Positions 5,510 to 60,207 of a DNA stretch of 64,000 nucleotides are shown here, in pieces. The translations under genes and the position numbers were made by a program. How positions within the stretch are numbered: position 1 is the stretch's first letter; each line of letters opens with the position of its first letter. The stretch is from Alphaproteobacteria bacterium (GTDB lineage Bacteria; Pseudomonadota; Alphaproteobacteria; Rs-D84; CACZYB01), in assembly GCA_016297965.1 (NCBI GenBank), contig JAEDDP010000001.1, positions 139,347-203,346 of the forward strand. The letters are read 5' to 3'. A model generated the notes under the pieces. The model made no database searches and was not told the origin of the DNA. It was given only the letters and a program-made list of their open reading frames with translations.

Positions 5510-5540
5510 CTTGAAAATTTTTGTTTTTAAGATTATCTAT
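5510..5540 (+). promoter_or_regulatory. Candidate heat-shock (sigma32/RpoH-type) promoter upstream of grpE
   Basis: CTTGAAA -35-like element (5510-5516), ~14 nt spacer, then gattatctat -10-like element; located 30-60 nt upstream of the grpE start. Confidence 0.3.
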
Positions 5541-5572
5541 TATTGTGTAATCAAATAGAAAGGATTTATTGA

Positions 5573-6217
5573 ATGTCAAAGAAAAATAAAAATCACGAAG
5601 ACAAAAGCAAATATTTTGAATTTGGTAAAAATGGGGAACAAAGGGTTGATGAAAATAAAGAATGCAAATGTTCCACAGAAAGTGATGCTTTGGATAATGA
5701 AAATTCTTCGGAATGTGATTGTGGTGAAGGTTGTAAGTGTGCCAAAAAGGGATGTGAAAAGGAAGTTGATTTGATAAACAACCTTAAAGCACAGGTTGAA
5801 GAATGGCAAAATAAATACCTTCGTGCGTATGCCGATGCGGAAAATTCAAAAAGACGTGCGGAAATTGATGCGAAAAATCTTGTTGATTACAAAATTTCAT
5901 CTTTTGCAAAGGATATGATACCACTTGCGGATAATCTTGCCCTTGCAATTTCTTCTATAAAGGGAAAGGTGGATGATGGGGTTTTGACCGGACTTTCATC
6001 CATACAGGATGGCTTTTTAAAGGCACTTGCCCATAATGGAATCGTAAAAATTGAAACGGTTGGAAAAGAGTTGAACCCTTTGGAACATAGGGTTGTTGCA
6101 CAGGTTGAATCCGATGAAAAACCAGAAACTATTGTTCAGGAATTTCAGGCTGGATACAAGATTGGTGATAAGGTAATACGTGAGGCAATGGTTGCAACAG
6201 CTAAACCTAAAAAATAG
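5573..6217 (+). CDS. grpE: Nucleotide exchange factor GrpE with an unusual ~60-aa Cys-rich N-terminal extension
   Basis: C-terminal 150 aa carry GrpE signature (YLRAYADAENSKRR ... coiled coil ... beta domain); N-terminus carries 9 Cys in CKC/CDCGEGCKCAKKGC arrangement. Confidence 0.85.
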   Translation: MSKKNKNHEDKSKYFEFGKNGEQRVDENKECKCSTESDALDNENSSECDCGEGCKCAKKGCEKEVDLINNLKAQVEEWQNKYLRAYADAENSKRRAEIDAKNLVDYKISSFAKDMIPLADNLALAISSIKGKVDDGVLTGLSSIQDGFLKALAHNGIVKIETVGKELNPLEHRVVAQVESDEKPETIVQEFQAGYKIGDKVIREAMVATAKPKK

Positions 6218-6566
6218 TTATGTATCCGGAAAGTTTGCCGAATTTATAGCCAAGTGTTATTTAGGATTGCTTGGCTATTTTGTTATTGCATCAAGGTACA
6301 GTGTTGGGCGTGGCCTTAGTGCCGGTGAGGTTGATATTATTGCCAAAAGGGGTAAGACGATAGTTTTTATTGAAGTTAAAAAGCGGGCGACTTTGCCACT
6401 TGCGATGGAGTCAATTTTTTCACGACAACAGGCAAGGATTTATAATTCGGCGGAGGTGTTTATCGCCAAACATCCCAAATATGCTTCCTTTGATTGTCGT
6501 TTTGATGCGATTTGTTTTAATAAATATTACTTTTTCCGGCATATAAAAAATGCCTGGGGATTTTAG
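6180..6566 (+). CDS. yraN: YraN family (UPF0102) predicted endonuclease; true start probably downstream of the listed ORF start
   Basis: GEVDIIAKRGKTIVFIEVKKR motif typical of YraN/UPF0102; ORF start overlaps the grpE end in another frame. Confidence 0.65.
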   Translation: MRQWLQQLNLKNSYVSGKFAEFIAKCYLGLLGYFVIASRYSVGRGLSAGEVDIIAKRGKTIVFIEVKKRATLPLAMESIFSRQQARIYNSAEVFIAKHPKYASFDCRFDAICFNKYYFFRHIKNAWGF

Positions 6567-6631
6567 GAATATTGTATTATTGCAAGTTATTCTCTTTTAT
6601 TATAATTTTCCAATGAATTGAGGAATATTAT

Positions 6632-7189
6632 ATGAGAACGAAATTGTTTTTACTTTTCTTTTTAGGTATGTTCGTTTTTTCATCTTTTGATGCAAAGGCA
6701 GTGTCTTTTTATTTGGGGACTGGACTTGGTGATTCAAAGGGTAGGGTTGAACATCTTCACCTTGATGATAAGCACGCCTTTGTCTTTTCCATTGGTTCAC
6801 ATTTTAATATTCCTCTTTTCCCCGTTAGGACTGAAATTGAATATTTTAATGCCAAAATGCAAAAGGATGAAATTGGTGATGCAAAGCTTATTGGATACAG
6901 TCTTAACACCTATGTCAATATTCCACTTCTTCCTATATTGGTGCCGTATGTTGGTATTGGATTGGGTACGATGAAGGAAAAGTTTAATAGTGGGGTTTTA
7001 GATTTTTCCAGACAATCAAATTGGAATTTTGTTCCGCAATATATGGTCGGTATTGATTTGGATTTGCCGACTGTACCGGTTGCCGGAAGTATGGAGTATC
7101 GGTATATTGAAAGAAAGTTTGATTTTGATGTGGCGGATTTGAAATCAAAATATCATATCTTTATGTTTAAGGCGCGGGTGAAATTTTAA
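6632..7189 (+). CDS. Small outer-membrane beta-barrel protein (OMP_b-brl / Omp25-like), paralog 1
   Basis: Signal peptide, alternating amphipathic beta-strands, C-terminal aromatic residue (KARVKF); clear paralogy with the next gene. Confidence 0.7.
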   Translation: MRTKLFLLFFLGMFVFSSFDAKAVSFYLGTGLGDSKGRVEHLHLDDKHAFVFSIGSHFNIPLFPVRTEIEYFNAKMQKDEIGDAKLIGYSLNTYVNIPLLPILVPYVGIGLGTMKEKFNSGVLDFSRQSNWNFVPQYMVGIDLDLPTVPVAGSMEYRYIERKFDFDVADLKSKYHIFMFKARVKF

Positions 7190-7290
7190 AAAATTTGGAC
7201 TTTTTACTTAAATATTGACTATATTTATTCTTTCTTTTATAATTTATTTAGGATTTAGGTCCTATATTTAAACTATAAAGGAGAATTTAT

Positions 7291-7815
7291 ATGAATAAAA
7301 AATTATTGTCCGCAAGTTTGATGATTGCATTGTTTGCAGGTTCAGTTCAGGCAGATGCTTTTTATATTGGTGCAGGTCTTGGTTCATCAAAAATTAAGAT
7401 AAAAGAAGAAGATCAATCCGGTGATAAGGATACTGCGTATACTCTTTCAACTGGTTTAAGCATTCCATTGCCATTTATTCCTGTACGTGGTGAAGTTGAA
7501 TTATCACAATTTAAATCTGATGATGTTAAATCACAGGCAGTTGCTGCAAATGCCTATGTTGGTCTTCCATTACTTCCAATCGTAAAACCATACGTTGGTT
7601 TCGGTTTGGCAGATATGAGATTGAAATCAGGTTCAGACAAGACAGATTGGAAAGTTGTTCCACAATATATGGTTGGTTTGGATGTTGATTTACCACTTAT
7701 CCCTGTGGCTGGTGGTATTGAATACAGATATATTGACACATCATTTGAAGATGGTGGTGATAAAATTGATACAAAAATTCAAACCGTTCTTGTAAAAGGT
7801 AGAATTAAATTTTAA
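7291..7815 (+). CDS. Small outer-membrane beta-barrel protein, paralog 2
   Basis: Signal peptide ending AGSVQA; shared blocks with 6632-7189 (VPQYMVG(I/L)D(L/V)DLP..PVAG..EYRYI); ends KGRIKF. Confidence 0.7.
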   Translation: MNKKLLSASLMIALFAGSVQADAFYIGAGLGSSKIKIKEEDQSGDKDTAYTLSTGLSIPLPFIPVRGEVELSQFKSDDVKSQAVAANAYVGLPLLPIVKPYVGFGLADMRLKSGSDKTDWKVVPQYMVGLDVDLPLIPVAGGIEYRYIDTSFEDGGDKIDTKIQTVLVKGRIKF

Positions 7816-7841
7816 TCAAAAATTAAAAAAATTTTGGTTGG

Positions 7842-7865
7842 AACCGTCCTGAAATATGGGCGGTT
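7842..7865. terminator. Intrinsic terminator; member of a recurring CACCGCC/GGACGGTG stem family (inverted orientation)
   Basis: aaccgtcctgaaatatgggcggtt followed by T-run. Confidence 0.5.
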
Positions 7866-7946
7866 TTTTATTGTAAAAAAATGCTTGTTATATACATTAA
7901 ATTATGGTATAATTAAAGGAGAATGTATTAGGAAAAGGAGAAAAAT

Positions 7947-8348
7947 ATGTCTATATTCAAATTCTTAACAAAAAAATCCACTGTGCTTTGTTTGGGACTT
8001 TTGGTTTTGTTTTCCGTTGTTGTGCCGGCAGATGTTTGGGCGCAAGCTTCAACTGCAAGTTTTAGTACCGGCCCATTCCAGGAGTTTTTGAAACGTGCAT
8101 CAAAATTATTTATGCAAACAAGAAATGCTTTGTTCGTTGTGGCTGCATTTGCATTTATTGCCTATGCTTGGACTGCAATTCAAAAAGGTAGTGTTGACTG
8201 GGATAAGATTTTCTATTTAATCGTTGGACTTACAATACTTGGTGTTGCAGGTTGGGTTGTTAGTTATATGGCAGACCCAAAGGGGGGTGCAAATGTTATT
8301 ATGGAAGATTATAAAGGTTTACAAAATACCCAGGGATGGGATGATTAA
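7947..8348 (+). CDS. Possible TrbC/VirB2-type T4SS pilin (orphan)
   Basis: 133 aa; long K-rich signal peptide with AxA-like cleavage (VWA-Q); mature part has two ~20-aa hydrophobic helices separated by a short polar loop, the classic VirB2 topology; no other vir genes adjacent. Confidence 0.4.
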   Translation: MSIFKFLTKKSTVLCLGLLVLFSVVVPADVWAQASTASFSTGPFQEFLKRASKLFMQTRNALFVVAAFAFIAYAWTAIQKGSVDWDKIFYLIVGLTILGVAGWVVSYMADPKGGANVIMEDYKGLQNTQGWDD

Positions 8349-8438
8349 AGAAAGTTTCTTTACTTAAAAAAAATCCTCCATATTTGATGGGGGATTTTTT
8401 GTTGGTGAAAAAGTAAATTCTGTTTGAAATAAAAAAAA

Positions 8439-8470
8439 CACCGCCCAATTGGACGGTGAATTTTGTTTTT
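8439..8470. terminator. Intrinsic terminator of the CACCGCC...GGACGGTG family
   Basis: caccgcccaattggacggtg followed by ttttgttttt; same stem as at 13279-13300. Confidence 0.5.
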
Positions 8471-8485
8471 ACCACAGTGGGTAAA

Positions 8486-8902
8486 TTATTTTGCCTCAGC
8501 CATAGGTGCAGGAGCAGGCATATCTTTCATACAGCCAGCCTTTTTACATCTGCCCTTGCCACAGTTACAATCTGGTTTGCCCATTTTTTCACATGGACAT
8601 GGTCCCTTTGGTCCTCTTTTATGGCATGGACCAACAGCAACCAAAGTTGCAAATACTGTTGCGGCAATAACGATAAGCAAAACAATAAAGCTTTTTACAC
8701 GATTACAGTTGCAACCGCAAACTGAACATTTGCAATCACATCCACAGTTGCATCCGCATTCGCATTTTTTATCAGTTGCAGGCATAGCTTCCTTTACAAC
8801 TGGTTTTGTTGTTTTTACTGATTTTACAGCCTTTACTGACTTAACAGATTTTTCTGTCTTTTTTGTAGCAGGCTTTTTTGAGGTTGTTTTTTTAGCTACC
8901 AT
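8486..8902 (-). CDS. Lysine-rich / cysteine-rich single-pass membrane protein (metallothionein-like CxC clusters)
   Basis: Strong SD (aaggagag) before ATG; N-terminal H1-like KKPATKK/KSVKAVKSVK tract; CECGCNCGCDCKCSVCGCNCN cluster; TM helix; second cluster CNCGKGRCKKAGC resembling the GrpE N-terminal module. Confidence 0.65.
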   Translation of the reverse strand: MVAKKTTSKKPATKKTEKSVKSVKAVKSVKTTKPVVKEAMPATDKKCECGCNCGCDCKCSVCGCNCNRVKSFIVLLIVIAATVFATLVAVGPCHKRGPKGPCPCEKMGKPDCNCGKGRCKKAGCMKDMPAPAPMAEAK

Positions 8903-8977
8903 AGTTCTCTCCTTTTGTTGTTTGACAATCCTTACTTTCTAAATTAAACTAAAAGTAAATCTAATTGGAGTATAACA

Positions 8978-9442
8978 TTGCAAAATAATATTTTCAATAC
9001 ATTAAAGCAAAAATATTTTACAACAGAAAAGAGGTTTTTGGGTATAGATTTTGGTACGGTGAATATTGGTGTGGCGGTTTCCGATGTGGGACGTCAAATT
9101 GCTAGTCCGTATGCGATGCTTAAAAATAAAAGTTATAAAGATTTGTTTCCGGAAATTTTACAAATTGTGAAGGAAATGGATGTTGGGGCAATTATTATTG
9201 GACTTCCCCTTCAAATGAATGGAGAGGAGGGTGAAACCGCATCAAAGGCCCGAGAGTTTGGGCGGTTGCTTGGTAAGGCGATACCGTTTGTTGATATTGC
9301 ATTTATTGATGAAAGAATGACATCGGGGATGTCCGAAAAAATGCTTATCCGTGATTTTGATTTAAGTCGGAAAAAAAGAAAGGCGATACTTGATAAGGTA
9401 TCGGCGGCGGAAATTTTGCAACGTGCGTTGGATGCATTTTAA
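8978..9442 (+). CDS. yqgF: YqgF/RuvX-like putative Holliday junction resolvase / pre-16S rRNA nuclease
   Basis: LGIDFGTVNIGVAVSD N-terminal motif and IIIGLP..MNGEEGE motif of the YqgF/RNase H-like fold. Confidence 0.85.
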   Translation: MQNNIFNTLKQKYFTTEKRFLGIDFGTVNIGVAVSDVGRQIASPYAMLKNKSYKDLFPEILQIVKEMDVGAIIIGLPLQMNGEEGETASKAREFGRLLGKAIPFVDIAFIDERMTSGMSEKMLIRDFDLSRKKRKAILDKVSAAEILQRALDAF

Positions 9443-19990: not shown

Positions 19991-21763
19991 TTACTTTATT
20001 CCCAACATTTCATTTAATGATTTAAGCATATCTTCAATGGTATTTTTGTTTTTAAAGCCATCCAAGTTATACTCAGTCATCTTTCTTGCACTTGTTTCCA
20101 ATGCACCAATTACTCCTTCATAATCAAATTCGCCTTCTGCTTTAACATCAGGGGTTCCATTGTAGTTGAATGTGTAATTAACGTTTTCATTTTCAACTTT
20201 TACGAATTCGGAGCAACTGTATTCTAAACTTTCGTTGTTTAGTTGGGCGATTACATTTTTATATTTTTCAATATCTTCGCTTGCCATCAAATTCATATCC
20301 CCTATATTTGGAATGGAGATTTTGTTGTCTGGTTTGCGTTTGAATTTTGCAATTGTGTTAAGGAGTTTATCCAAGTTGTTGTGTGCGCGTGTTAAATCAT
20401 CCCCCTTTATCTTTTTAATTGATGGAAGTTTATCAAGCATAGATAGGGCATTTTGTAGGGCAGAATGTACATCCTTAGTTATTTGGGCATTATCCGCTTT
20501 ACATTCATTTGGCGCAAGGGATGCAAGCAAAGTTTTTATATCATTTTCCATTTGTGAAAGTTCGGAATTTACGTTTTTCTTTTTGTCGGATTTTTCCTTA
20601 ATTACACCATAAATACCCTTGTCTTTAAGTTCCTGAGCTGCATTTGTGCCAAGTGCAACACCAACGGTGTTATTTACGGTAAAGTCAAACAAACCCTTTA
20701 ATGCACCTTTCTTTGAAATTTCCTTTTCAAGGGCAGAGCGATTGTCCACAAGAGTGAATGTTGTGTCTTCCATATCAACCTTGAAATTACGGCCACAGGC
20801 AGTTTCACCTTCGGTTACAAAGGTGTTGGCGATAGTAACAAGTTCACGTGGATAGGTTTGTGATTTTGTGTTAAGGTTTAAATCGGCAAGCTTTCCAATT
20901 TGACCGGAATAATTCCATGAATTATCACCAATGTTTGCAAAAAGGCTTGCGATTGTGGAGGAAAGTTTCTTTTTTCCCTGATACATTGAACCGGTATCCA
21001 AAACGCCGTCGCTGTTGATTGTGGCACCGGAAAGAAAAGTTTTTTCGTCGCTGTCGGACCAATCATCAATGCTGATAGTTTTGTATTTTTCAATGATTGC
21101 ATCGCGACCGCATTTTTTATCAATTCCGCGGTCAAGTTCGGTTATCTTGGAGGCATCAAACATAGCCTTAAATGCGCCGTCGGCAGAGCTGTTTTTTTCG
21201 GCCTGAATATACATAAAGCAATCTTGGGCGGCGGAATATTTCGCCTTTGCCATATTACAATTTTTACGTTCCCTTATTTGTTGTTCGGAATATAAATCCC
21301 AAAGGTTTTCAACCAATTCCTCCTGAAATGGAGAACAAAAATTCATAAGATCCTTTCCATTGCAATTTTTGCCGGAAATTTCGGATGTGATGGACGAAAG
21401 GTTTGGAAGTTCAAAGTTGAATGAAAGTTGAACCTTTACCTTGCTTTTACATGGATAGGTTTCACAATATTTTTTTAATCCTTCGGATACGGCGATGGCG
21501 CATTTTCGTTTTGCAAGAAGGTTTGTGGATGATGGAACCGTGCCACAGATAAGGTTTGCATCATTGGAAATTGTCGTTCCGGTTGTTGTGGTTGTTTGTC
21601 CGGTATAGCGAGAATTTGATGAACTTAATGTTCCGCGTACGGATGTTTTTGACATAGTGGCGGAACGTTTTGAACGGTTTGACCTTCTTGGTGCAGACGA
21701 AACATTGGTATCAAAAAATATACCAACGATTAAAAACAAAGATGTGAACCAAGTTTTTTTCAT
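19991..21763 (-). CDS. Secreted Cys-rich protein, paralog family member (RS-rich post-signal motif)
   Basis: Signal peptide then APRRSNRSKRSA motif; shared blocks with 24961-26457 (NLW..Y...NCN.A.A...A...C, T(E/Y)(F/Y)PR(D/E)L, ...EK(E/K)I..KG.L.G). Confidence 0.7.
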   Translation of the reverse strand: MKKTWFTSLFLIVGIFFDTNVSSAPRRSNRSKRSATMSKTSVRGTLSSSNSRYTGQTTTTTGTTISNDANLICGTVPSSTNLLAKRKCAIAVSEGLKKYCETYPCKSKVKVQLSFNFELPNLSSITSEISGKNCNGKDLMNFCSPFQEELVENLWDLYSEQQIRERKNCNMAKAKYSAAQDCFMYIQAEKNSSADGAFKAMFDASKITELDRGIDKKCGRDAIIEKYKTISIDDWSDSDEKTFLSGATINSDGVLDTGSMYQGKKKLSSTIASLFANIGDNSWNYSGQIGKLADLNLNTKSQTYPRELVTIANTFVTEGETACGRNFKVDMEDTTFTLVDNRSALEKEISKKGALKGLFDFTVNNTVGVALGTNAAQELKDKGIYGVIKEKSDKKKNVNSELSQMENDIKTLLASLAPNECKADNAQITKDVHSALQNALSMLDKLPSIKKIKGDDLTRAHNNLDKLLNTIAKFKRKPDNKISIPNIGDMNLMASEDIEKYKNVIAQLNNESLEYSCSEFVKVENENVNYTFNYNGTPDVKAEGEFDYEGVIGALETSARKMTEYNLDGFKNKNTIEDMLKSLNEMLGIK

Positions 21764-21808
21764 ACCTTTAATTATACTATAATTTTTAAGTTAATAAAAG
21801 CCCTTTTT

Positions 21809-22411
21809 TTAGAAATTGTTTATTTCCTTTAACGCCATTTTTATAAGGTCGTTCATTCCAATCATTGGGTTTTTGTTTATAAGGTTCATTACAACCTCAA
21901 AACTTTGCGATCTGGTATAGCCAAGGTTGGAAAGGGCGGAAATTGCATCTTCGGCGATGGAATCGTTTTTCATTTCCCGTGAAATGCCGGCAAGTTCAAG
22001 GTTTATGTTTGTTTTTTGAACCTTGTCCTTTAATTCCTGAACTATACGTTCGGCGGTCTTTTTCCCAATGCCATTTGCCGTTGTGAATGAAACGGCATCA
22101 CCGGATAAAATAGCGGTGGAAATTTGTTGTGGGGTAAGGGCGGAAAGTATGGCAAGTCCGGCCTTTGGTCCGATACCCTGTACCAAAGTCAAAAGGTTAA
22201 AAAATTCGTGTTCGGTTTGGGTGGCAAAACCGTAAAGTGTGATACTGTCTTCACGTACTATTGTTTCAATCCAAAGTGTAAGAGGAGTGTTTAAGGTTAG
22301 TTTTGATATTGTCTTTTGTGGCACAAATACACCATAGCCAACACCGTTCACATCAAGTATTATTTGTGTTTCCGAAAGTGTGTCAACAATGCCCTTTAAT
22401 TTTGAAATCAT
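21809..22411 (-). CDS. ruvA: Holliday junction DNA helicase subunit RuvA (no adjacent ruvB)
   Basis: 200 aa; N-terminal OB domain ILDVNGVGYGVFVP, HhH motifs LVQGIGPKAG, C-terminal domain III. Confidence 0.9.
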   Translation of the reverse strand: MISKLKGIVDTLSETQIILDVNGVGYGVFVPQKTISKLTLNTPLTLWIETIVREDSITLYGFATQTEHEFFNLLTLVQGIGPKAGLAILSALTPQQISTAILSGDAVSFTTANGIGKKTAERIVQELKDKVQKTNINLELAGISREMKNDSIAEDAISALSNLGYTRSQSFEVVMNLINKNPMIGMNDLIKMALKEINNF

Positions 22412-24852
22412 TACCAGTTTATCGCCTTTATTTTTCTTACCATATCATTATAATTGAATGGTGAAATTTTGGAGTTATTGTGAATACATCTCTTTCCAAC
22501 TCCTTCAACTTGTTGCCAATCATCAAGGTTAAAATTGTTATATTGTTTTGAAATATAATCATATTCTTTTACAAGTTCTTTCATCGTTGATTTTTCGTTG
22601 GATGAAATCTTTTCATAATAAGTTTGTTCCTTAAACTTGCTATTTGGTGTAGGTGATATTGAACAACCATACCAACTTTTTGGATTTGTATCGTGAGCGC
22701 ATTTTAATTGAAGTTTTTTGAATATTTCGCAGGCTCTATCCGCTAATTTTTTTAATTCATCAAGATCAGATTTATAATTACACTCTTCTAATTGTTGTTT
22801 TGCATTTTCATACGTTATTGTTTTCCAAACAAAGCTAGTATTTGAACATTGTTTCTTTAATGCATCAAAACAAGCCTTTTGCGCTTCATCGGTATTTAAA
22901 AATACACCTTTTAGTGAAATGCCAAGTTGTGTTTGACACATATTGATTTCTTTTTGAGCATCAATTATCGCATTTAATTTTGTAATGTTTGACTTTATAT
23001 CATCAATAGTTTTTTTGAAATTATCCTTTGTCAAAGTAGGTTTGTCAGATGTATCATTACACAAAGAATTTCTTTTTTCCTTAACTTCATTACATGCATG
23101 TGTATTTAAATATTTTTTTACCTGTGAAATTGAAACTTTGTTTAAAAGTTCACTCTCTTTTTTCATTAAGTCGTTATATTCACTGTAATCAATCCAATTA
23201 TCAACTTTGTTTTTACATTCGTTTGAATAATCATAATTGTCATTACCAGCGGTTGTTGTAAGTTTTAAAGTTTCCTTTATTCCCTTAGTATCTGCATATT
23301 TTTTACATAATTCAGTTTCTATTTTGGTTTTGCAATTTTGTGGATTTTTTCCAATATCAATGGATAATTTGTTGTTGGAGTAAATCTTTTTGGCACCAAC
23401 CAAATAATTGTTGCATTCTGCCAAATCCTTTTCATTTTGTATTGTATTTAAACATTCCTTTACAACCTCATTATTTTCAAGAGTTGTTTTATTTATTGAA
23501 AAATCATTTTTTAATGTTTCTATGTCTGAATCACAGAATTTTTCGGTTCGGCTTTTTGTTGTTATGTAATAATCAAGACTTTTTGTTCCGCTTTTATTTG
23601 GAATAGGAGATACACCGCTACATTTCTCTTGTATTGCTTCCAAAAGGACCAAATTTTTTAAGCAAGTTTCAAGTTTTTCTGCGGCTTTGTCCTGTGATAA
23701 TATTTCATAGCTTTTGCAACTTTTATCTGGTTCAAACATTAACTGTATTTTTGATACGGATTTTGCCAATTTTGCAACTCCATTTTCAAAAATTACACCA
23801 TATCCAGGGTTGTTTGAACTTGCACAAAATGCCTTTGTTGTTTCGTATAAATATTTATAGCCATCAGGACTGTTGTCTTTGAACTCTTTATTTTTAAATA
23901 AGTTTCGTATGTCTGTTGTTAATTTAGAACACTGAGCAAGTTTTTCTATAATACATTCTTTTTGCGTTAATTCATCTTGTTTCTTTTTACACATTTCTAA
24001 TGAAGTAAGTTTTTTAACATCTTCATTTTTACTTATTTTTTGTATTTCAGCTTTACAATCTTCAAGAGCTTTATTTGCTTCCTGTTGTGCCTGTTTTAGT
24101 TTTTCAATATTTTCTTCGGCTGTTGTGGTTTCCGTTGCAATTTTTTTCTTAAGGGCTTCAAGTTGATCATTGGATAGGTTTTCTATGGTTGAAACATCCA
24201 ATTTTACATCCCTTTGATCTGTATTATGTTGTTTAAGGTTTGGAACCTTTTGTTTATTTAATTCTTTGTTCAAATCATCAAAATTTTTTTCGGTGATTTG
24301 TTTTGTCGTTTCTGTTGTTTTGAATAAGTCAGGAATGGAAAGAAGTCCTGCTTCCTCATTAAGTATTTTTGCCAGTGTTCCAAGTCCCGCTTTGATATCG
24401 GCCATTAGACCTGTTTTTGTTTGTGACTCTATTGTATTTATTTTTTCCCGTAATTTTTGGAATATACGAAGTTCTTCATAAAATTCCTTTATTGTCTTAA
24501 AGGTGTCATGTGATGCCGTTTCCGCAATACTTCCAGTAAGTTTTTTTGTGGCTGGTGCCGTTGGAAAACCATTAGGGCAGTCCTTGGTAATGCCTTCTTC
24601 CTTGCAAAATTTAGAGCAATCGCCAGTATATTTTGCATTTTTACAATAGTTATTTTGTAAATCTTCTACTTCTTTAAGAAATGCGTTTGCCACACTGTTA
24701 AGGTTTGTTGCTGTATCAGATGGTATTTTAATTTCAAGGTTTCGTTCAATCCTTGTGTCAGAATCAGACTTTGCACCAGAATCAGAAACCATCCCTGCGT
24801 AAAGAGTAGGGGAAAAGAAAAGACAAAGTAGTGTAGCTATCACTTTTTTCAT
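22411..24852 (-). CDS. Large secreted Cys-rich, Lys-rich coiled-coil protein (hypothetical)
   Basis: Probable start MKKVIATLLCLFF signal peptide; ~40 Cys distributed in CxxC/CK pairs; stop overlaps the ruvA start codon. Confidence 0.6.
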   Translation of the reverse strand: MKKVIATLLCLFFSPTLYAGMVSDSGAKSDSDTRIERNLEIKIPSDTATNLNSVANAFLKEVEDLQNNYCKNAKYTGDCSKFCKEEGITKDCPNGFPTAPATKKLTGSIAETASHDTFKTIKEFYEELRIFQKLREKINTIESQTKTGLMADIKAGLGTLAKILNEEAGLLSIPDLFKTTETTKQITEKNFDDLNKELNKQKVPNLKQHNTDQRDVKLDVSTIENLSNDQLEALKKKIATETTTAEENIEKLKQAQQEANKALEDCKAEIQKISKNEDVKKLTSLEMCKKKQDELTQKECIIEKLAQCSKLTTDIRNLFKNKEFKDNSPDGYKYLYETTKAFCASSNNPGYGVIFENGVAKLAKSVSKIQLMFEPDKSCKSYEILSQDKAAEKLETCLKNLVLLEAIQEKCSGVSPIPNKSGTKSLDYYITTKSRTEKFCDSDIETLKNDFSINKTTLENNEVVKECLNTIQNEKDLAECNNYLVGAKKIYSNNKLSIDIGKNPQNCKTKIETELCKKYADTKGIKETLKLTTTAGNDNYDYSNECKNKVDNWIDYSEYNDLMKKESELLNKVSISQVKKYLNTHACNEVKEKRNSLCNDTSDKPTLTKDNFKKTIDDIKSNITKLNAIIDAQKEINMCQTQLGISLKGVFLNTDEAQKACFDALKKQCSNTSFVWKTITYENAKQQLEECNYKSDLDELKKLADRACEIFKKLQLKCAHDTNPKSWYGCSISPTPNSKFKEQTYYEKISSNEKSTMKELVKEYDYISKQYNNFNLDDWQQVEGVGKRCIHNNSKISPFNYNDMVRKIKAINW

Positions 24853-24960
24853 AATGTTTATTGTATCATTTTTTTTCGTGAAGGGCAAGACCTATTTATC
24901 GTTAGTATTAAAAAAAAGCCCCCAATGAATGAGGGCAATGTTTTAAAAAGTGAAAGTTTG

Positions 24961-26457
24961 TTATTCTTCGGAAGGTTCAGTTGGGGTTGCCGGTGTATCA
25001 CCAGAACCATCAAAGCTTGTATCTCCGGTGCCGTCGCCTTCTTCACTAGAATATGAAGAGGTAGAAGGATTTTCAGGTTCTTTTTCTTCGCCACCTGTTT
25101 CACCGGAAGATTTCTTTTCTTCCCTTAATTTTTTGGCTTCTTCACGTTTATTTTTTCTTTCTGTTGCCTTTTTCTCCTTTTCTTCGGCTTTTTTTGCCTT
25201 ATCTAATTCTTTTTTAACAGATTTTACTTCTTTGTTTAAAGCTTTATAATTTTCATTTAACTGATTAACCTTTTCAACAAAGTCAGGTTCGGTGCTTTCA
25301 GGAATGGCTTCCTTTTGAGCCTTTAATTCTTCTATCTTTTTGGTTAAATCACTTTTCTTTGTTTCATCGGTAATTTCGTTAATTGAGGTTGTTAATGTTT
25401 CTATATTACCGTCAAATTTGTTAAGCATATCTTTTGCAGATTTTATATCCTTTATTTGTTTATCTGCTTCACGTTCTTCTTTGGTCTTTCCGGCCATTGT
25501 GTCATTTGCCCAATTTGTACCCTTGAATGCGCCAATTTGGTCAACAATATATTCCTTTCCACCGGCAAGAAGTCCCTTTTCGTTAATCTTTCTTTCAATT
25601 GAGCTTGTCTTGTCAACAAGGGCGATGTTTGCATCGTAAAGTTCAGTGTAGTTTTTCTCGCCACACATCATATTACCCTCTGATTTAAGGGAGTTTACAA
25701 GTTGGATTAAATCACGTGGAAATTCGGTTGTTTTAAAATCAATTTTAAGGTCAAGAAGTCGTCCATAGGCCGCAAGGTTTGACCAACCGATATTTCCAAC
25801 CTTTGAAAAGTATGAAGTTAGACTGTCCCCAGTTTCGGAGTCGGAAATTTCTTCACCATTTGAAATTCTTTTATATTGTAATTGTATTGCGGATTTTCCA
25901 CATCTGCTGTTTAAATCACCACTTGAAATGACAACTTTTTCATTTTGGCTTGTCAAAACATAACGATAGCATTCTTCAGCAGCAAGTGAGCGGGCAAGGG
26001 CGATATTACAATTTTTTGTATCATTTGCGGCATAGCTGTCGTATGAATTCCAAAGGTTGTTTACCGCTTCTTCAATGAAATTTGCACAATAAATTTCATT
26101 TACCTCAGTTGTATCGGTTGGAAGAATTATCCCCGCATAGGCTTCGGTTGCATTTTTACATTTGTTGTTTCCACAATAGTTTTTAAGAGATTTAACAACC
26201 ATTGCAGTACAGTTTCGTTTTGCACTGGCATCGGTGATTGGGGCAACCTGTGTATAATCGGTTGTTCGTACGGTTGTGTCGGCAACGGTAGCATTTACGG
26301 ATGTTGTTGTACCGCTTACCTTTACATTACCACTAAGACTGCGACGAGATGAGGCAGAACGTGCGGAAGAACTGTTCCTTCTGGAATTTCTTGCGGCGTC
26401 TGCATTTTGATTGAAAAGTACAGCCAATCCCAATAATGCAATAAGTTTTTTAGTCAT
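24961..26457 (-). CDS. Secreted Cys-rich protein, paralog family member
   Basis: Signal peptide ADA-A then ARNSRRNSSSARSASSRRS; paralogous blocks with 19991-21763 and 26472-27977; acidic/K-rich low-complexity C-terminus. Confidence 0.7.
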   Translation of the reverse strand: MTKKLIALLGLAVLFNQNADAARNSRRNSSSARSASSRRSLSGNVKVSGTTTSVNATVADTTVRTTDYTQVAPITDASAKRNCTAMVVKSLKNYCGNNKCKNATEAYAGIILPTDTTEVNEIYCANFIEEAVNNLWNSYDSYAANDTKNCNIALARSLAAEECYRYVLTSQNEKVVISSGDLNSRCGKSAIQLQYKRISNGEEISDSETGDSLTSYFSKVGNIGWSNLAAYGRLLDLKIDFKTTEFPRDLIQLVNSLKSEGNMMCGEKNYTELYDANIALVDKTSSIERKINEKGLLAGGKEYIVDQIGAFKGTNWANDTMAGKTKEEREADKQIKDIKSAKDMLNKFDGNIETLTTSINEITDETKKSDLTKKIEELKAQKEAIPESTEPDFVEKVNQLNENYKALNKEVKSVKKELDKAKKAEEKEKKATERKNKREEAKKLREEKKSSGETGGEEKEPENPSTSSYSSEEGDGTGDTSFDGSGDTPATPTEPSEE

Positions 26458-26471
26458 AATTTTTTCTCCTT

Positions 26472-27977
26472 TTAATCATCCAAAGTTGTAAATTCTGTTT
26501 GGTTTAGTTCCTTATTTTCTTCCCTTCCAAGCATCTTTTTAAGGGCAGTTTTTGAAAGGTTTACGTTTTCATTTTCCATATCGTAATCAATTGTTTTATA
26601 TTCAATGGTTGCATTTTCACCAACACCGGTTTTGCGAACCTCAATTATACGATATTGTTTTTTCTCGCTTTCCTCAGGTGTGAGAAGAAGGTATTTCCCG
26701 GTTTTAAGTTCAGATTTCTTTTCCTTTAATGTACTATCGGAAATATCACCGCTTAGTGTAAGTACGGCAATGCTTGTATCCGTATTAACATCTTCATCTT
26801 TTACACCACCAATGATACCTTCACGGGAAAGCTTATTCATACGGTTTTCACCAACGATAACAGATGCCTGGTTAAAGGTCCAGGTTTGTGCGCCCTTTAA
26901 TCCACCCTGTTCATCAATTGCCCGAGCAAGAGATGACTTTTCACGGGAAACCTGAATATCGGTTTGATGCATTGTTGCGGTATATTCGGAACCGCAGGCA
27001 GGTCCAACTTCGTTTAGGTGAGTGTTTAGAATTTGGGTTATTTTTACCTCCCAATCGTTGGATTTGTCAGTAATTTTTCCATCCAAATAATTACTTACAA
27101 CTTCAATTCCATCGGCAGGGCTTAATTTTCCGGCATTTATATATAGTCGTGGAATGTCGGTTGGGAAAATTATACCCTTTTGTTCCTCATCCCCAAAGAG
27201 TTTGGTCCATTTTGCTTGGAGACCAGCAATTCCGCAAAGGCTGTTTAACTTGCTTTCAATAGAATCAACCGCACCGGTTGCACGTCCGGCGGAAAGTACG
27301 GCCTGAAAACATTCGTTTGATGCCTCCGCCACAACACGTTTAAGTTTGCAATTTGGTGAATTTGCACCGGTTATTTGGTAATCATCGGCAATGCTTTTTG
27401 TTAAATCCTCAGTAAACATATAGCAAGCCTTATCATACTCATACGCCTGACCTTCAATATATACGGTAATGCCAGAAGTATCAAAGTTTATGAAAAGGTC
27501 GTTTGCATCATAACATTTAAGTTTACCATCTTCGCCAATGCCGTTGTTGAAATAAGATTCATCACAGGCATTTTGAATTGCATTTATAAGGGCATTTCCA
27601 CAAGCCTTTCTTTGTGAAACGGCAAAAGAATCACTCTTTTTAATACATTCATTCGTGTTTGATGCATTTATTATATAATTTGTTTCATCAACACATTCGC
27701 ATGCGGTTCCGGCGGAATTTTTTCTGGCATTTGCACCACATTTAAGGAAAGCAGTTGTTTTTTTACCGATACATGCCGGATCGCCAGGTTTTGCACACTT
27801 TATTGTCTTTATTCCGGATGTTGTATTTTTAAGTCCGGTGGAAGTTTGTGCGTTCGTTGCGGAATAAATTGAACGGGCGGATCTTCGGTTTGTACGTGCA
27901 GAATAAACATCACTACCAATTAGAAGTAATGGTAGAGCCATAATTTTTATATAAAAGTTTTTGTTCATTTTTTTCAT
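26472..27977 (-). CDS. Secreted Cys-rich protein, paralog family member
   Basis: Signal peptide then SARTNRRSARS motif; shares the ACG...SLARAIDEQGGLKG block with the other family members. Confidence 0.65.
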   Translation of the reverse strand: MKKMNKNFYIKIMALPLLLIGSDVYSARTNRRSARSIYSATNAQTSTGLKNTTSGIKTIKCAKPGDPACIGKKTTAFLKCGANARKNSAGTACECVDETNYIINASNTNECIKKSDSFAVSQRKACGNALINAIQNACDESYFNNGIGEDGKLKCYDANDLFINFDTSGITVYIEGQAYEYDKACYMFTEDLTKSIADDYQITGANSPNCKLKRVVAEASNECFQAVLSAGRATGAVDSIESKLNSLCGIAGLQAKWTKLFGDEEQKGIIFPTDIPRLYINAGKLSPADGIEVVSNYLDGKITDKSNDWEVKITQILNTHLNEVGPACGSEYTATMHQTDIQVSREKSSLARAIDEQGGLKGAQTWTFNQASVIVGENRMNKLSREGIIGGVKDEDVNTDTSIAVLTLSGDISDSTLKEKKSELKTGKYLLLTPEESEKKQYRIIEVRKTGVGENATIEYKTIDYDMENENVNLSKTALKKMLGREENKELNQTEFTTLDD

Positions 27978-52732: not shown

Positions 52733-53326
52733 ATGGATAATCAAAAAGTAAAGGTAAATCTTTTGGGTGAAGAAAATGGTAATGGTACAGATGTTCTTGA
52801 TTTGGCACTTAAAACTAATGGTGCGGAAAAGGAATATAATATCATTCTTCATAACAGATTTTTGACTATTGATAAAGAGGTAAATAAAAGGTTAAGGTCT
52901 GCGGGATTTACCAATGAACAGGCACAACTTGTTTACGATTTGGCAGGTGAAATTATGATACCAAAGATTCAAGAAGTGGTTGAAGAATTTCGTGCATATC
53001 GCGAGCTTGCAAAATTGGAAAATTATTTTGGTGGTGAAGAACGTTTTGATGAAATATCAAGACAGATTTCTATGTGGGCGGAAAAAAATGTTCCACCGGA
53101 AATTTATCAATCTTTGAACTCTTCTTTTTATGGTGTGATTGCATTGTATAATATGATGACTTCCAATGAACCAAAAGTTATGGCAAAGTCTGGGGAAACA
53201 CAGGAAGTTATCACCGAGAAAAAATTGAAAGAGATGATGCAAGATCCAAAATATTGGAGAGATGGTGATAAGGATTTTATTAAAAAAGTTGATGACGGTT
53301 TTAAATTTTTATATGGTGATGAATAA
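52733..53326 (+). CDS. T7 gp9-like capsid scaffolding protein
   Basis: Acidic helical 197-aa protein; C-terminus MMQDPKYWRDGDKDFIKKVDDGF parallels the T7 gp9 C-terminus AMSDPRYRTDANYRRQVEQKVIDSNF; located upstream of the capsid gene. Confidence 0.6.
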   Translation: MDNQKVKVNLLGEENGNGTDVLDLALKTNGAEKEYNIILHNRFLTIDKEVNKRLRSAGFTNEQAQLVYDLAGEIMIPKIQEVVEEFRAYRELAKLENYFGGEERFDEISRQISMWAEKNVPPEIYQSLNSSFYGVIALYNMMTSNEPKVMAKSGETQEVITEKKLKEMMQDPKYWRDGDKDFIKKVDDGFKFLYGDE

Positions 53327-53437
53327 AATTTTTATTAAAAAAAATTGAAAAAATTTTATTTTTTTATATTTTGCTGTTGCAGTATTGCTTTTTGTGTGGT
53401 ATATTGTATCTGTCTTTTGTTTAATAAGGAGAGAGAT

Positions 53438-53902
53438 ATGTTTAAAAGTATAATTAAAAGAGCTTCTAAACCAACCGCAAAAAAGGTTGCCGTAAAATCA
53501 GAAGAAAAAAAAGTTGTTGCTAAAAAAACAACAGTTGCAAAAAAGCCAGTAGCTAAAAAAGTTGCAGTTAAAAAAACAGCAGTTGCAAAGAAACCAGTTG
53601 CTAAAAAAGTAACAGTTAAAAAAGCGACAGTTGCAAAGAAACCAGTTGCTAAAAAAGTTGCAGTTAAAAAAACAACAGTTGCAAAGAAACCAGTTGCTAA
53701 AAAAGTGACAGTTAAAAAGGCAACAGTTGCAAAGAAACCAGTTGCTAAAAAAGTAACAGTTAAGAAAGCAACAGTTGCAAAGAAACCAGTTGCTAAAAAA
53801 GTAACAGTTAAAAAAATCGTTGTAAAGAAAGCTTCTGTTAAGGTTGCATCAGTTAAAAAAGCTGTGAAACCTGTTGCAAAAAAAAAAGTAGCAAAGAAGT
53901 AG
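53438..53902 (+). CDS. Histone H1 / Hc1-like lysine-rich repeat protein
   Basis: SD aaggagag before ATG; about six tandem 16-aa repeats KKPVAKKV(T/A)VKK(A/T)TVA encoded by 48-bp DNA repeats. Confidence 0.65.
   Translation: MFKSIIKRASKPTAKKVAVKSEEKKVVAKKTTVAKKPVAKKVAVKKTAVAKKPVAKKVTVKKATVAKKPVAKKVAVKKTTVAKKPVAKKVTVKKATVAKKPVAKKVTVKKATVAKKPVAKKVTVKKIVVKKASVKVASVKKAVKPVAKKKVAKK
53515..53830 (+). repeat. 48-bp tandem coding repeats (about 6 copies) inside the H1-like gene
   Basis: gttgcaaagaaaccagttgctaaaaaagt(a/g)acagttaaaaaagc(g/a)aca recurring with a 48-bp period. Confidence 0.8.
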
Positions 53903-53910
53903 AAGTTTCT

Positions 53911-54471
53911 TTGGTAGTTTCTAATCCTAACAAGGATAAGAAAGAGGTTGGTGAAAATAAGAAAACATCCTTTTTCGGTTCTTTGTTAGGATTTTTTTAT
54001 AATCATACAAAGGGAATTATAAAAACAATTTTAATACTTTCAGTATTGGTTGCATTTACAACTTCGTTTATGAAAGAATTAGAAGTGTATGCGGATATGC
54101 GTTTTGCAATGAATCCTATTGAAATTATTTTTATTGGTTTTGTTGATGCTGTTTTTAATCTTGTAAAATACTTTATACCTTTCCTTTTTGTATGCTTGAT
54201 TATTAAATTTATTATGATTAAATCTAGGAAGTTAAAGGTTGAATACATATTTAACAGACAATTTAAAATGCAAATCTTGATTGCCTTTTTGCTTTCGTTT
54301 GCATTTGCAGTTTTGTTTTATACTGATGTGTTGGCGATTGCCACATATTCACCACAACTTGTGAAATCATCGGTTGATATTTTTATGTTGTCATTCTTTT
54401 CAATACTTTTGACATTTACATCTTTGTTTGGTTTGTTGGATGGTGTTGATACCGTGATTTCAAAGAAATAG
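53911..54471 (+). CDS. Hypothetical polytopic membrane protein (moron between scaffold and capsid genes)
   Basis: 186 aa, 4 predicted TM helices. Confidence 0.45.
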   Translation: MVVSNPNKDKKEVGENKKTSFFGSLLGFFYNHTKGIIKTILILSVLVAFTTSFMKELEVYADMRFAMNPIEIIFIGFVDAVFNLVKYFIPFLFVCLIIKFIMIKSRKLKVEYIFNRQFKMQILIAFLLSFAFAVLFYTDVLAIATYSPQLVKSSVDIFMLSFFSILLTFTSLFGLLDGVDTVISKK

Positions 54472-54583
54472 TTAAGTTCTGGATTAAATTATACTTTTGT
54501 CCGTCCCTTTTTGGGGCGGATTTTTTTTATGGGCGAAGTTAAATTTGCCCTTTTCGTTTAATTAAAATATAGGAGATTTATAT

Positions 54584-55414
54584 ATGTCAGTTTCTATTGA
54601 TAAAGTGTTTATAAAACAATTTGAAGCGGATGTTCATCTTGCTTTTCAACAAATGGGAACAAAACTTCGTTCCACAGTTAGAACAAAAAATGATGTGAAG
54701 GGAAGTTCAACTACATTCCAAAAAATTGGAAAGGGTATTGCCAGTGTGAAGGCAAGACATGGACTTGTTCCTGTTATGAATTTGGATCATACACCGGTTG
54801 AATGTGTATTGACAGATTATTATGCGGGTGATTGGGTTGATGAACTTGATGAATTAAAAACAAATGTTGATGAACGTCGTGTTGTTGCATCTGCCGGTGC
54901 GTATGCCCTTGGTCGCAAAAGTGATGAACTTATCATTGCAGAATTAAACAAGGCAACAAATTCAGTTCAGACATCATCAGCGGGTCTTACAAAATTAAAG
55001 ATTTTTGAGGCATTGGAATTTTTGAATGCAAATGATGTGCCAGATGATGGTCAAAGATTTGGTGTTGTTGGTGTTCATCAATGGAACGAACTTTTAAGTA
55101 TGGATGAATTTTCAAAGGCAAGTTATGTCGGCGATACCTATCCTTTACTTAAAGGTACAGAATCAAGAAAATGGATGGGCGTAAATTGGATTTTGCATAA
55201 TTCACTTCCATGCAGTGAAGGTGAAAGAAGTTGTTTCATTTATCATAAAAATGCGATTGGTCATGCATCTGGATGTGAAGTTAAAACAGATATTTCATGG
55301 CATGGTGAAAGGGCAGCTCACTTTATTTCAAATTGTATGAGTCAAGGAGCAACGCTTATTGATAATCAAGGAATTGTGAAAATTATGTGTGATGATGACG
55401 CGGTTATTGCCTAA
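54584..55414 (+). CDS. T7 gp10-like major capsid protein (short form)
   Basis: Pattern VFIKQFEADVHLAF...RSTVR...F......DELKTNVDERRVVASAGAYALGRKSDELIIAELN parallels T7 gp10A LFLKVFGGEVLTAF...RHMVR...DAMNHYDVRSEYTSQLGESLAMAADGAVLAEIA; follows the scaffold gene and precedes the gp11/gp12 homologs. Confidence 0.6.
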   Translation: MSVSIDKVFIKQFEADVHLAFQQMGTKLRSTVRTKNDVKGSSTTFQKIGKGIASVKARHGLVPVMNLDHTPVECVLTDYYAGDWVDELDELKTNVDERRVVASAGAYALGRKSDELIIAELNKATNSVQTSSAGLTKLKIFEALEFLNANDVPDDGQRFGVVGVHQWNELLSMDEFSKASYVGDTYPLLKGTESRKWMGVNWILHNSLPCSEGERSCFIYHKNAIGHASGCEVKTDISWHGERAAHFISNCMSQGATLIDNQGIVKIMCDDDAVIA

Positions 55415-55449
55415 AATAAAACAAAAATAAAAAAAGGAGAAAAAATATT

Positions 55450-55710
55450 ATGAGTATGAATTCAAAAAATTTGTCGGTTCTTGCCTATTCAAACGGTTTT
55501 ACATTTTGGCATTATAAAACAGAAGATGCAAAGGATGCGGTTGTTGCGGCGAATTATTTTAATGATGTTGCAAATATTTTTAATGTTGGTGATTTGATTG
55601 TGGCATCAATGGATATTGCAGGTACAATGACAACCGGAATGTTTGCGGTTACTTCAATTGCTTCTGGTGTTGTTTCAATTTCAAGTATTATTCCATCTGC
55701 AAGTGTGTAA
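55450..55710 (+). CDS. Small hypothetical virion-module protein
   Basis: 86-aa ORF with RBS between the capsid and gp11-like genes. Confidence 0.35.
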   Translation: MSMNSKNLSVLAYSNGFTFWHYKTEDAKDAVVAANYFNDVANIFNVGDLIVASMDIAGTMTTGMFAVTSIASGVVSISSIIPSASV

Positions 55711-55753
55711 ATAAAATAAATATCTTTTAATTTCAAGGTTCCATTTTTTTTGG

Positions 55754-56338: not shown

Positions 56339-56348
56339 GTAGGTAATT

Positions 56349-58250: not shown

Positions 58251-58263
58251 AAGGATTAAAAAA

Positions 58264-58683: not shown

Positions 58684-58686
58684 AAA

Positions 58687-60076: not shown

Positions 60077-60207
60077 ACAAGATGTGTAAATTTATAACCT
60101 ATATTTTCACAAAACGCAACAAAAAAGTTTACTTTTTGTAATAATAGCTTGTTTTGATGACAAAATTATGGTATTATTGTACATATAGTTTTAGGAGAAA
60201 TTGGGAT

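Follow-up and report, generated by a model that had tools for sequence, protein, structure and literature searches.

Can the DnaK nucleotide-exchange factor GrpE of a bacterium carry a metal-binding tail? The question is raised by a 64,000-nucleotide (nt) stretch of contig JAEDDP010000001.1 (hereafter, the window), in which the grpE gene encodes a Cys-rich segment ahead of the canonical GrpE sequence and a second gene, a little further on, encodes a Lys- and Cys-rich membrane protein of 138 amino acids (aa). The original prediction had read both proteins as carriers of one shared, metallothionein-like module. The window (~35% G+C) comes from a low-GC uncultured gut or rumen alphaproteobacterium; its closest relatives, among the matches listed, were all gut, rumen or faecal metagenomes, and a scan of a genome collection returned at least two close relatives among the matches listed.

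The grpE coding sequence (positions 5573 to 6217, plus strand, from the list of open reading frames (ORFs)) specifies 214 aa plus a stop codon. The Pfam GrpE model (PF01025) matched aa 64-211 with 136.7 bits against a cut-off of 25.8, whereas the best NCBIfam equivalog, NF010738, stayed at 125.9 bits, under its cut-off of 137. Judged by these scores, the protein represents a divergent lineage that no lineage-specific equivalog model covers, while its Pfam-level assignment is not in doubt. An AlphaFold2 model, run with a 38-sequence alignment, returned the GrpE architecture, with helices at aa 59-129 and 135-154 and beta strands at 157-211. AlphaFold2 and Pfam together delimit a Cys-free core (positions 5756 to 6214, plus strand) of long helix, helical bundle and beta domain, modeled with a predicted local distance difference test (pLDDT) score of 79 rising to >90. 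The long helix begins at aa 59; what precedes it (aa 1-58; positions 5573 to 5746, plus strand) is predicted to be a disordered N-terminal tail, with pLDDT <50 for aa 1-55.

Read from its start, the tail consists of a basic MSKKNK head, a single aromatic patch (KYFEF, aa 13-17) and then the metallothionein-like, Cys-rich segment (aa 29-61; positions 5657 to 5755, plus strand), delimited by its Cys positions and by clade-wide Cys/His richness. GrpE contains seven Cys residues—at 31, 33, 48, 50, 54, 56 and 61, with zero in the core—and not the nine counted originally; the two strings quoted at the time, ECKCSTE and ECDCGEGCKCAKKGCEKE, are both present as given. The segment thus holds 7 Cys in 33 residues (21%), with three CxC pairs and zero aromatics, against a background of 1.28% Cys in the long ORFs of the window (binomial p = 1.8e-7); like the Cys-rich part of the 138-aa protein, it is enriched about ten-fold over this background. 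A six-frame regular-expression scan, covering the window and seven related loci (~170 kb of clade sequence), located within it CDCGEGCKC (positions 5714 to 5740, plus strand), an instance of C-x-C-G-x-x-C-x-C. The last residue of the series, Cys61, occupies the N-cap position of the long helix in the AlphaFold2 model and is referred to below as the junction Cys. The claim of a ~60-aa extension needs to be qualified. The Cys-rich segment is real, but ordinary GrpEs already have tails of 20-65 aa, so that it partly replaces an existing tail, for a net gain of ~10-40 aa.

A start codon conserved downstream of the segment would turn the Cys-rich stretch into an untranslated leader, with the true GrpE start near residue 60-67. 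In the window genome, an AGGAA followed by a TTG (Leu67) at the tail/core junction is what such a start might look like. We examined this in orthologues from a homologue search that returned 57 GrpEs, with ~45 cluster representatives whose cores were 49-99% identical to that of the window GrpE. Residue 67 is T, K, E, I or Q in these orthologues and Leu/TTG only in the window genome, so the candidate was discarded; no other internal start was conserved, and the first Met after the tail sits within the long helix. In at least 45 orthologue clusters, the frame is open from MSKK to the core and all changes in tail length are in frame. The initiation signals, moreover, lie at the annotated ATG: a Shine-Dalgarno-like AAGGA, read directly from the sequence, precedes it by 8 nt (positions 5560 to 5564, plus strand), and a promoter-like element (positions 5510 to 5540, plus strand) made up of CTTGAAAA (5510-5517) and TATCTAT (5534-5540) lies 30-45 nt upstream. 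When the sequences ahead of grpE were aligned for five genomes sharing 60-70% identity in the GrpE core, both blocks proved unchanged. The element fits a sigma-70-like TTGAAA-N17-TATCTA better than sigma-32; its -35 block also equals the sigma-32 consensus CTTGAAA, but for a sigma-32 promoter the CYTAT-like -10 would be spaced non-canonically, by ~23 nt and not 17. Tails of 20-65 aa ahead of the helix are found in ordinary GrpEs too, which also speaks against an untranslated leader. With a conserved promoter-like element, a ribosome-binding site, in-frame length changes and no conserved internal start, a downstream start is not supported and the untranslated leader appears very improbable; on these sequence grounds, the Cys-rich segment is best taken as part of the translated protein.

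Across the orthologues, the layout consists of an M-S/I-K-K head, an unalignable tail of 23-108 aa and a conserved C-E-K-E-x-D-x-I-x-N-L junction, and both MSKK itself and an aromatic residue early in the tail recur. The tails hold between 1 and 25 Cys (median 8), with three or more in 35 of the 45, arranged in CxC, CC and CxCGxxCxC patterns and often accompanied by an enrichment in His, as in CHCHNCECEHH or CEHHCHH. The junction Cys is the most constant of these residues: it is kept in 43 of 45 tails, is replaced by R or H in P0029-P0031, and is the only Cys in the basal members P0044 and P0045. A subset of the clade keeps DCGEG[VI][EK]C[PA]xxGCE directly ahead of the helix, of which CDCGEGCKCAKKGCE in the window is a variant. 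In a neighbour-joining tree of GrpE cores, the Cys-poor members P0015, P0016 and P0038/41 are nested within Cys-rich groups, a position that implies secondary Cys loss, and P0013, with 25 Cys, falls among relatives with 4-8, implying rapid expansion of its tail. Turnover of this kind, with nested losses and sudden expansion, resembles what is typical of accessory metal tails. Tandem Repeats Finder returned zero repeats in the DNA of the GrpE tails of the window and L081, so slippage of long repeats does not explain tail expansion; internal duplications were seen in the GrpE P0034 and, outside GrpE, in P0095 of the 138-aa family. A further sequence, P0047 (285 aa, on an ENA contig of 1382 nt), joins the first ~65 residues of this GrpE tail to a penicillin-binding-protein fragment, probably through chimeric assembly or gene calling and not as a true fusion.

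Outside the clade, Cys-rich tails are rare. The more distant GrpEs of the homologue search were without Cys, and ~70 GrpEs from species-representative genomes (Rhizobiales, Bacillota, Campylobacterota and others) had acidic tails with 0-2 Cys, over-extended ORF calls and the loci L052 and L013 excluded. The extension is thus lineage-specific, as had been proposed: clade-wide in at least 45 orthologue clusters and nearly Cys-free in the ~70 other GrpEs. The two excluded loci have Cys in their tails. One encodes a GrpE of an uncultured Sutterella sp. from a human gut metagenome-assembled genome (L052:9947-10552) with six tail Cys (GCCAQGECGCNEQAPCTEGCEPE); this is a betaproteobacterial protein from a hemH-grpE-dnaK-dnaJ cluster of ~55% GC, and its tail looks like an independent origin in another gut lineage. 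The other, from a rumen proteobacterium (L013), has three tail Cys. Since Cys richness persists across the orthologues despite the turnover of the surrounding sequence, against a background of 1.28%, the enrichment in the clade appears to be selectively maintained and not the product of drift; for GrpE, this persistence carries more weight than the binomial value.

How closely does the tail resemble a metallothionein? In Cys content (about 15-30% in metallothioneins), in its CxC arrays and in the scarcity of aromatic residues, aa 29-61 fall within the range of this protein class, and the metallothionein-like character originally ascribed to the segment holds in composition and motif. By other measures, it falls outside. 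Curated models did not recognise it: the plant Ec metallothionein model Metallothio_PEC reached 19.3 bits against the window tail, under its cut-off of 31.8, and no tail examined matched an SmtA/BmtA-type model in Pfam or NCBIfam. A search of PDB sequences with the GrpE tail, at E up to 10, gave no match. Nor is the segment a free-standing low-molecular-weight protein: in GrpE, a core of 150 aa follows it, and its counterpart in the second gene is part of a membrane protein. The closest likeness is to fungal copper-thioneins, which share with the GrpE tail the Cys density, the CxC pairs, few aromatics, Lys/Asp/Glu/Asn spacers and the exact C-x-C-G-x-x-C-x-C motif, present as CNCGSGCSC in Neurospora crassa metallothionein and as CQCGDKCEC in Candida glabrata MT1 (PMC4755600). 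Local alignment of the window tail scored 61 against the former, 67 against the latter (both sequences taken from PMC4755600) and 58 against the 138-aa protein; richer tails (L002, P0034) reached 117-129 against C. glabrata MT1 and 73-77 against the 138-aa protein. The motif is also common to plant-type CxCGxxCxC metallothioneins and is a generic, classical thionein motif. Fungal and plant thioneins are free-standing eukaryotic proteins of 26-63 aa, whereas the segment described here is bacterial and sits on GrpE or beside a membrane helix; the resemblance is almost certainly convergent. Compared with the bacterial metallothioneins SmtA and BmtA, which are likewise cytoplasmic Cys/His proteins that bind metals, the difference is one of fold, as SmtA has a defined zinc-finger-like structure and a Pfam model of its own that no tail matches.

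GrpE is a parallel dimer, as known from GrpE structures, and it senses temperature; its mitochondrial counterpart also senses oxidation. Against this background, the acidic, disordered tail of other GrpEs seems to have been rebuilt in this clade into a basic head with an aromatic patch, a hypervariable Cys/His stretch and a Cys at the helix N-cap. We give even odds to the proposal that the result is a metal-thiolate tail, possibly a redox-sensitive one. In a reducing cytoplasm, its thiolates would bind soft metals, Zn(II) or Cu(I), with Ni or Co conceivable where His is abundant. Because the two tails would emerge side by side from the parallel dimer, they could share one metal cluster. The main task of the tail would then likely be to buffer or sequester metal from a position on a stress protein. 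As a probable by-product, or a second function, the DnaK cycle itself may be affected: it is through this tail that GrpE reaches the substrate-binding domain of DnaK, and compaction of the tail by metal or its oxidation to disulfides would change the extent to which it promotes substrate release. The disordered tails of Escherichia coli GrpE transiently occupy the substrate-binding site of DnaK and promote substrate release (PMC12915176). That tail (residues 1-33) is the same disordered element ahead of the long helix, near the substrate-binding domain, but it is acidic and Cys-free and works by way of a hydrophobic IIM motif (PMC12915176); in the window tail, KYFEF is the only hydrophobic patch, and a Cys-rich spacer separates it from the helix. 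We infer that the basic-aromatic patch KSKYFEFGK could be a DnaK-binding element, in which case the Cys segment would act as a metal-sensitive tether.

The best functional analogy—an analogy and not a homology—for a metal tail on a chaperone component is HspA, the GroES of Helicobacter pylori, whose His/Cys tail is described as nickel-binding in, for example, PMC5116745 and PMC4671568. HspA is likewise a stress-induced housekeeping co-chaperone with a short, lineage-specific, disordered His/Cys tail that is dispensable for the core fold, and the GrpE tail has the features that define this type of appendage, as a Cys-rich, often His-containing, lineage-restricted and disordered extension of a co-chaperone. 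The HspA tail is C-terminal and His-dominated, whereas that of the clade GrpE is N-terminal and Cys-dominated with CxC spacing; metal binding has been shown for the former and for the latter is read from sequence. Other bacterial chaperone systems offer precedents for Cys/Zn centres in the redox-regulated chaperone Hsp33 (a Cys4 zinc centre) and in the CXXCXGXG zinc finger of DnaJ, but these are folded, conserved domains with fixed Cys spacing, neither hypervariable tails nor located on GrpE. Full-text literature searches brought up no Cys-rich or metal-binding bacterial GrpE, and a 2025 review of GrpE-like factors reports redox regulation only for GRPEL2 and leaves metals unmentioned. What would be new, then, is a bona fide GrpE with a thionein-like tail, the HspA-type metal tail on a chaperone component being already known. 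If the proposal is right, Helicobacter HspA would be joined by a second example of a chaperone component serving as a metal-binding scaffold. Because the GrpE tail enters the DnaK substrate site, a metallothionein-like version would also give metal load or redox state a direct route to tune Hsp70 substrate release; the metallothionein-like look of the tail points to a connection, so far undescribed, of the Hsp70 cycle with metal or redox chemistry. The GrpE case would be clade-wide in abundant uncultured gut and rumen alphaproteobacteria and possibly, by convergence, in Sutterella.

Several observations weigh against a metal-thiolate tail. Metal-transporter or regulator genes were not found near grpE, whose neighbourhood (folD, PBP1A, UPF0102, small outer-membrane proteins) is one of housekeeping genes. 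The window tail itself is modest, with seven Cys and a 14-residue acidic spacer that separates the first CxC from the main cluster, and even the richer GrpE tails and the membrane-protein family matched no metallothionein model in Pfam or NCBIfam. Several clade members have lost every Cys but the junction Cys, which makes the segment dispensable for GrpE function, and the extreme variability of the tails argues against a finely tuned regulatory switch. An alternative is that the tail is a redox switch and not a metal store. Its Cys residues, especially the junction Cys, would form disulfides within or between subunits under oxidative stress, or might release a structural Zn as in Hsp33, and the locked or collapsed tails would leave DnaK holding its substrates until reducing conditions return. 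The junction Cys is indeed the sole Cys kept nearly everywhere, Cys-poor and basal members included, and the pair should be adjacent in the parallel dimer, given known GrpE structures and the modeled helix start at aa 59. Contact with oxygen is a genuine stress for the hosts, which live as anaerobes in the gut, and vertebrate GRPEL2 is reportedly regulated by a disulfide just upstream of its Hsp70-contacting region (PMC12987570). GRPEL2 is a GrpE-family protein with a Cys upstream of the Hsp70-contacting helix, to which Cys61 is comparably placed, and its disulfide was reported under oxidative stress (PMC12987570), yet it is a eukaryotic (vertebrate mitochondrial) factor with a single Cys and no metal, in place of the thionein-like cluster of the clade GrpE. 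A redox switch needs one to four Cys and so leaves the expansion to 8-25 Cys, together with the His co-enrichment, unexplained; P0029-P0031 manage with R or H at the junction position; and CxCGxxCxC spacing is characteristic of metal-thiolate clusters. We therefore regard a switch in place of a store as rather unlikely, while noting that disulfide chemistry is compatible with metal binding.

The variability of the tails can also be turned into an argument for neutrality: the tail might tolerate any sequence, Cys might be cheap in a reducing, sulfide-rich anaerobe, and slippage-prone Cys-rich repeats, in GrpE as in the 138-aa protein, would come and go without a specific role. Hypervariable length and sequence, repeated loss, micro-repeats in the 138-aa gene, the duplications in P0034 and P0095 and a gene context without metal-related genes are all in keeping with such drift. 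In an AT-rich genome, however, neutral drift would lead to N/K-rich tails, as in the few members that lost their Cys, whereas the roughly ten-fold Cys enrichment has outlasted a divergence of the cores to 50-60% identity between lineages. The Cys spacing is ordered and not random, CxCGxxCxC is confined to two gene families in the ~170 kb of sampled clade sequence, a Cys-rich tail seems to have arisen independently in the 55%-GC Sutterella GrpE, and the tails of the window and L081 are free of DNA repeats. Low-complexity drift seems to us, on balance, unlikely. The metal-thiolate tail can, conversely, be extended into a more elaborate scheme that we consider doubtful, in which a pseudo-substrate patch that binds DnaK (MSKK...YFEF) is tethered to the coiled coil by a segment gated by metal or redox state. 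Loading with Cu(I) or Zn, or oxidation, would collapse the tails of the dimer into one cluster, out of reach of the DnaK site, and the Hsp70 system would then turn from foldase to holdase during metal or oxygen stress. Such an arrangement would have evolved at least twice, and independently, among gut proteobacteria, in the alphaproteobacterial clade and in Sutterella, and would act alongside a membrane-tethered thionein that catches incoming metal at the inner membrane face.

The candidate for such a thionein is the 138-aa protein, encoded at positions 8486 to 8902 on the minus strand by an ORF with an AAGGAG ribosome-binding site upstream. It contains 17 Cys (17/138; binomial p = 3.7e-12 against the same background). 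Its N-terminal region (aa 1-46; positions 8765 to 8902, minus strand) is rich in Lys, Ala, Pro and Thr, and the gene carries a 9-nt KSV micro-repeat, with a tandem repeat at 8813-8856. Then follow the cluster CECGCNCGCDCKCSVCGCNC (aa 47-66; positions 8705 to 8764, minus strand), which has ten Cys, includes CxCGxxCxC and is the one conserved in the family, and a predicted transmembrane helix, SFIVLLIVIAATVFATLVAVG (aa 71-91; positions 8630 to 8692, minus strand), the single hydrophobic helix in a scan for hydrophobic stretches. The C-terminus of 47 aa is basic and Cys/Pro-rich and includes CNCGKGRCKKAGC (positions 8531 to 8569, minus strand), the cluster that had been matched to GrpE. The Cys clusters quoted for this protein are thus present, and a membrane helix is predicted as proposed; of the histone-H1-like N-terminus, the Lys richness stands, while the likeness to Hc2 proves to be only compositional, the Hc2 models PF07382 and NF038052 giving no match to the window protein and 16-19 bits for its relatives P0061 and P0062, under the cut-offs of 40 (Pfam) and 135 (NCBIfam).

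Putative transcription signals frame the gene. Upstream lies a sigma-70-like promoter candidate, TTGAAA-17-TATACT with an upstream TG (positions 8969 to 8997, minus strand; 10/12 matches in a consensus scan, a pattern match only), and 28 nt past the stop codon an intrinsic-terminator-like hairpin of eight pairs, six of them G-C, is followed by the T-run TTTTTTTTAT (positions 8439 to 8458, minus strand). Placement of the gene on the minus strand is backed by homologues as well as by its ribosome-binding site, promoter candidate and terminator; a 159-aa ORF antisense to the gene (8463-8942, plus strand) was set aside as an artefact of the Lys/Cys-rich coding strand.

The 138-aa protein turned out to belong to a family that sensitive searches alone brought to light. 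A word-indexed search with the protein by itself found a single relative, 98% identical, and a three-sequence profile added four weak matches; an exhaustive profile search returned 65 representative clusters at E <= 0.001, 16 of them at <= 1e-10. Inspection of every listed sequence assigned members by profile match and common architecture: a Lys/Ala/Pro/Thr-rich N-terminus of 30-90 aa, a Cys cluster, a single hydrophobic helix and a variable C-terminus, with C-x-C-G-x-x-C-x-C directly ahead of the membrane helix in 38 of the 67 listed sequences. The 138-aa protein had nothing above threshold in Pfam or NCBIfam and no match among PDB sequences at E up to 10, and none of the family clusters looked up had an informative name; the family of 65 representative clusters is previously unannotated. 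The window protein falls into a subfamily of short members that begin with MVAKKT..., carry GPCP(C) motifs behind the helix and finish with MPAPAP. In three genomes (window, L001 and L089), the gene lies divergent to ruvX. Synteny downstream of grpE was tried as a route to orthologues and abandoned, that region being conserved only in close relatives; ruvX is the anchor. With 18 K/R against 5 D/E, the N-terminus is the more basic end, which suggests a cytoplasmic location; Lys-rich arm and main Cys cluster would then both lie along the inner membrane face. As a low-confidence proposal, the 138-aa protein may be a membrane-tethered thionein-like protein.

Most of the longer family members (P0062, P0066-P0070, P0085, P0095 and others) have a conserved post-helix C-terminal domain with three Cys and an EF-hand-like loop, approximately GPRxEFxNGCLD..VKCPK..MDxDxDGCIxxxEF; the EF-hand match of P0062 is sub-threshold. 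Some members carry tandem arrays, such as CACGKDCKCGANCACGKNCKCGANCAC in P0095. At L087:8001-9309, the gene of the distant member P0061 is followed 29 nt on by a DsbA-like Thioredoxin_4 gene, although the reading at this locus is not exactly the sequence of P0061; this neighbour is not general in the family.

Do GrpE and the 138-aa protein, then, carry one mobile metallothionein module that was shuffled between them? Pairwise BLASTP connects the two proteins at E = 0.002 (over 21 aa) and 0.009, and the segment scores exceed those of composition-preserving shuffles (p = 0.0025-0.0125), although these controls destroy the CxC periodicity of all thioneins and so overstate significance. Also in favour of shuffling, CxCGxxCxC occurs in both families, in several species, and in the six-frame scan it was found only in grpE and the membrane-protein gene family; a broader Cys-cluster filter added only radical-SAM/SPASM and DUF5131 ORFs. 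Fungal metallothioneins are the better control, and both proteins are equally or more similar to these—which cannot be donors—than to each other, so that what had been called nearly the same module is a weak similarity. The CxCGxxCxC of the membrane protein sits, moreover, in its pre-helix cluster and not in the cluster chosen for the original comparison. The latter, CNCGKGRCKKAGC, occurs only in the window species and its 98% relative: in orthologues, its position holds GPCP(C) repeats, it aligns to the second GPCPC repeat in L001, and it is absent from P0063, P0071, P0089, P0113 and P0118. On the GrpE side, the conserved, ancestral-looking form DCGEG[VI][EK]C[PA]xxGCE is less like CNCGKGRCKKAGC than is the version in the window. 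The longest DNA word common to both genes is 11 nt, with no other nucleotide similarity. These results undercut the pairing of CDCGEGCKCAKKGC with CNCGKGRCKKAGC on which domain shuffling had been built, and a shuffled module now looks decidedly improbable. CxCGxxCxC being generic among thioneins, convergence explains its recurrence more simply; the two genes probably share chemistry and not ancestry.

As for the surroundings, grpE has a divergent folD on one side and UPF0102/yraN on the other, and hrcA is not adjacent. Further along the plus strand lie two tandem paralogues of small outer-membrane beta-barrel proteins (OMP_b-brl; 6632-7189 and 7291-7815) and a lone TrbC/VirB2-pilin-like gene (7947-8348), which scored 24.8 bits, just under the cut-off of 27.9, and near which other type IV secretion genes were not found. 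The same trio is also present downstream of grpE in L089. Towards the far end of the window, four genes could be identified in a phage-like cluster (52733-59286, plus strand): one for a scaffold protein of the T7 type (52733-53326), one for a Lys-rich protein of the histone-H1-like Hc2 type whose N-terminus is hydrophobic and Cys-rich (53345-53902; 41.1 bits, cut-off 40), one for a major capsid protein of the Phage_capsid_2 family (54584-55414; E = 9e-72) and one for a weakly matched terminase-like ATPase (58687-59286). The cluster could be what remains of a prophage, or else an element resembling a gene-transfer agent. At 19991-27977 (minus strand) and 60154-62064 (plus strand), the window encodes several large proteins, predicted to be secreted, that have no Pfam match; they are Ser/Arg/Thr-rich after the signal peptide and contain many Cys, 29 of them in an 825-aa ORF at 22411-24888 (minus strand).

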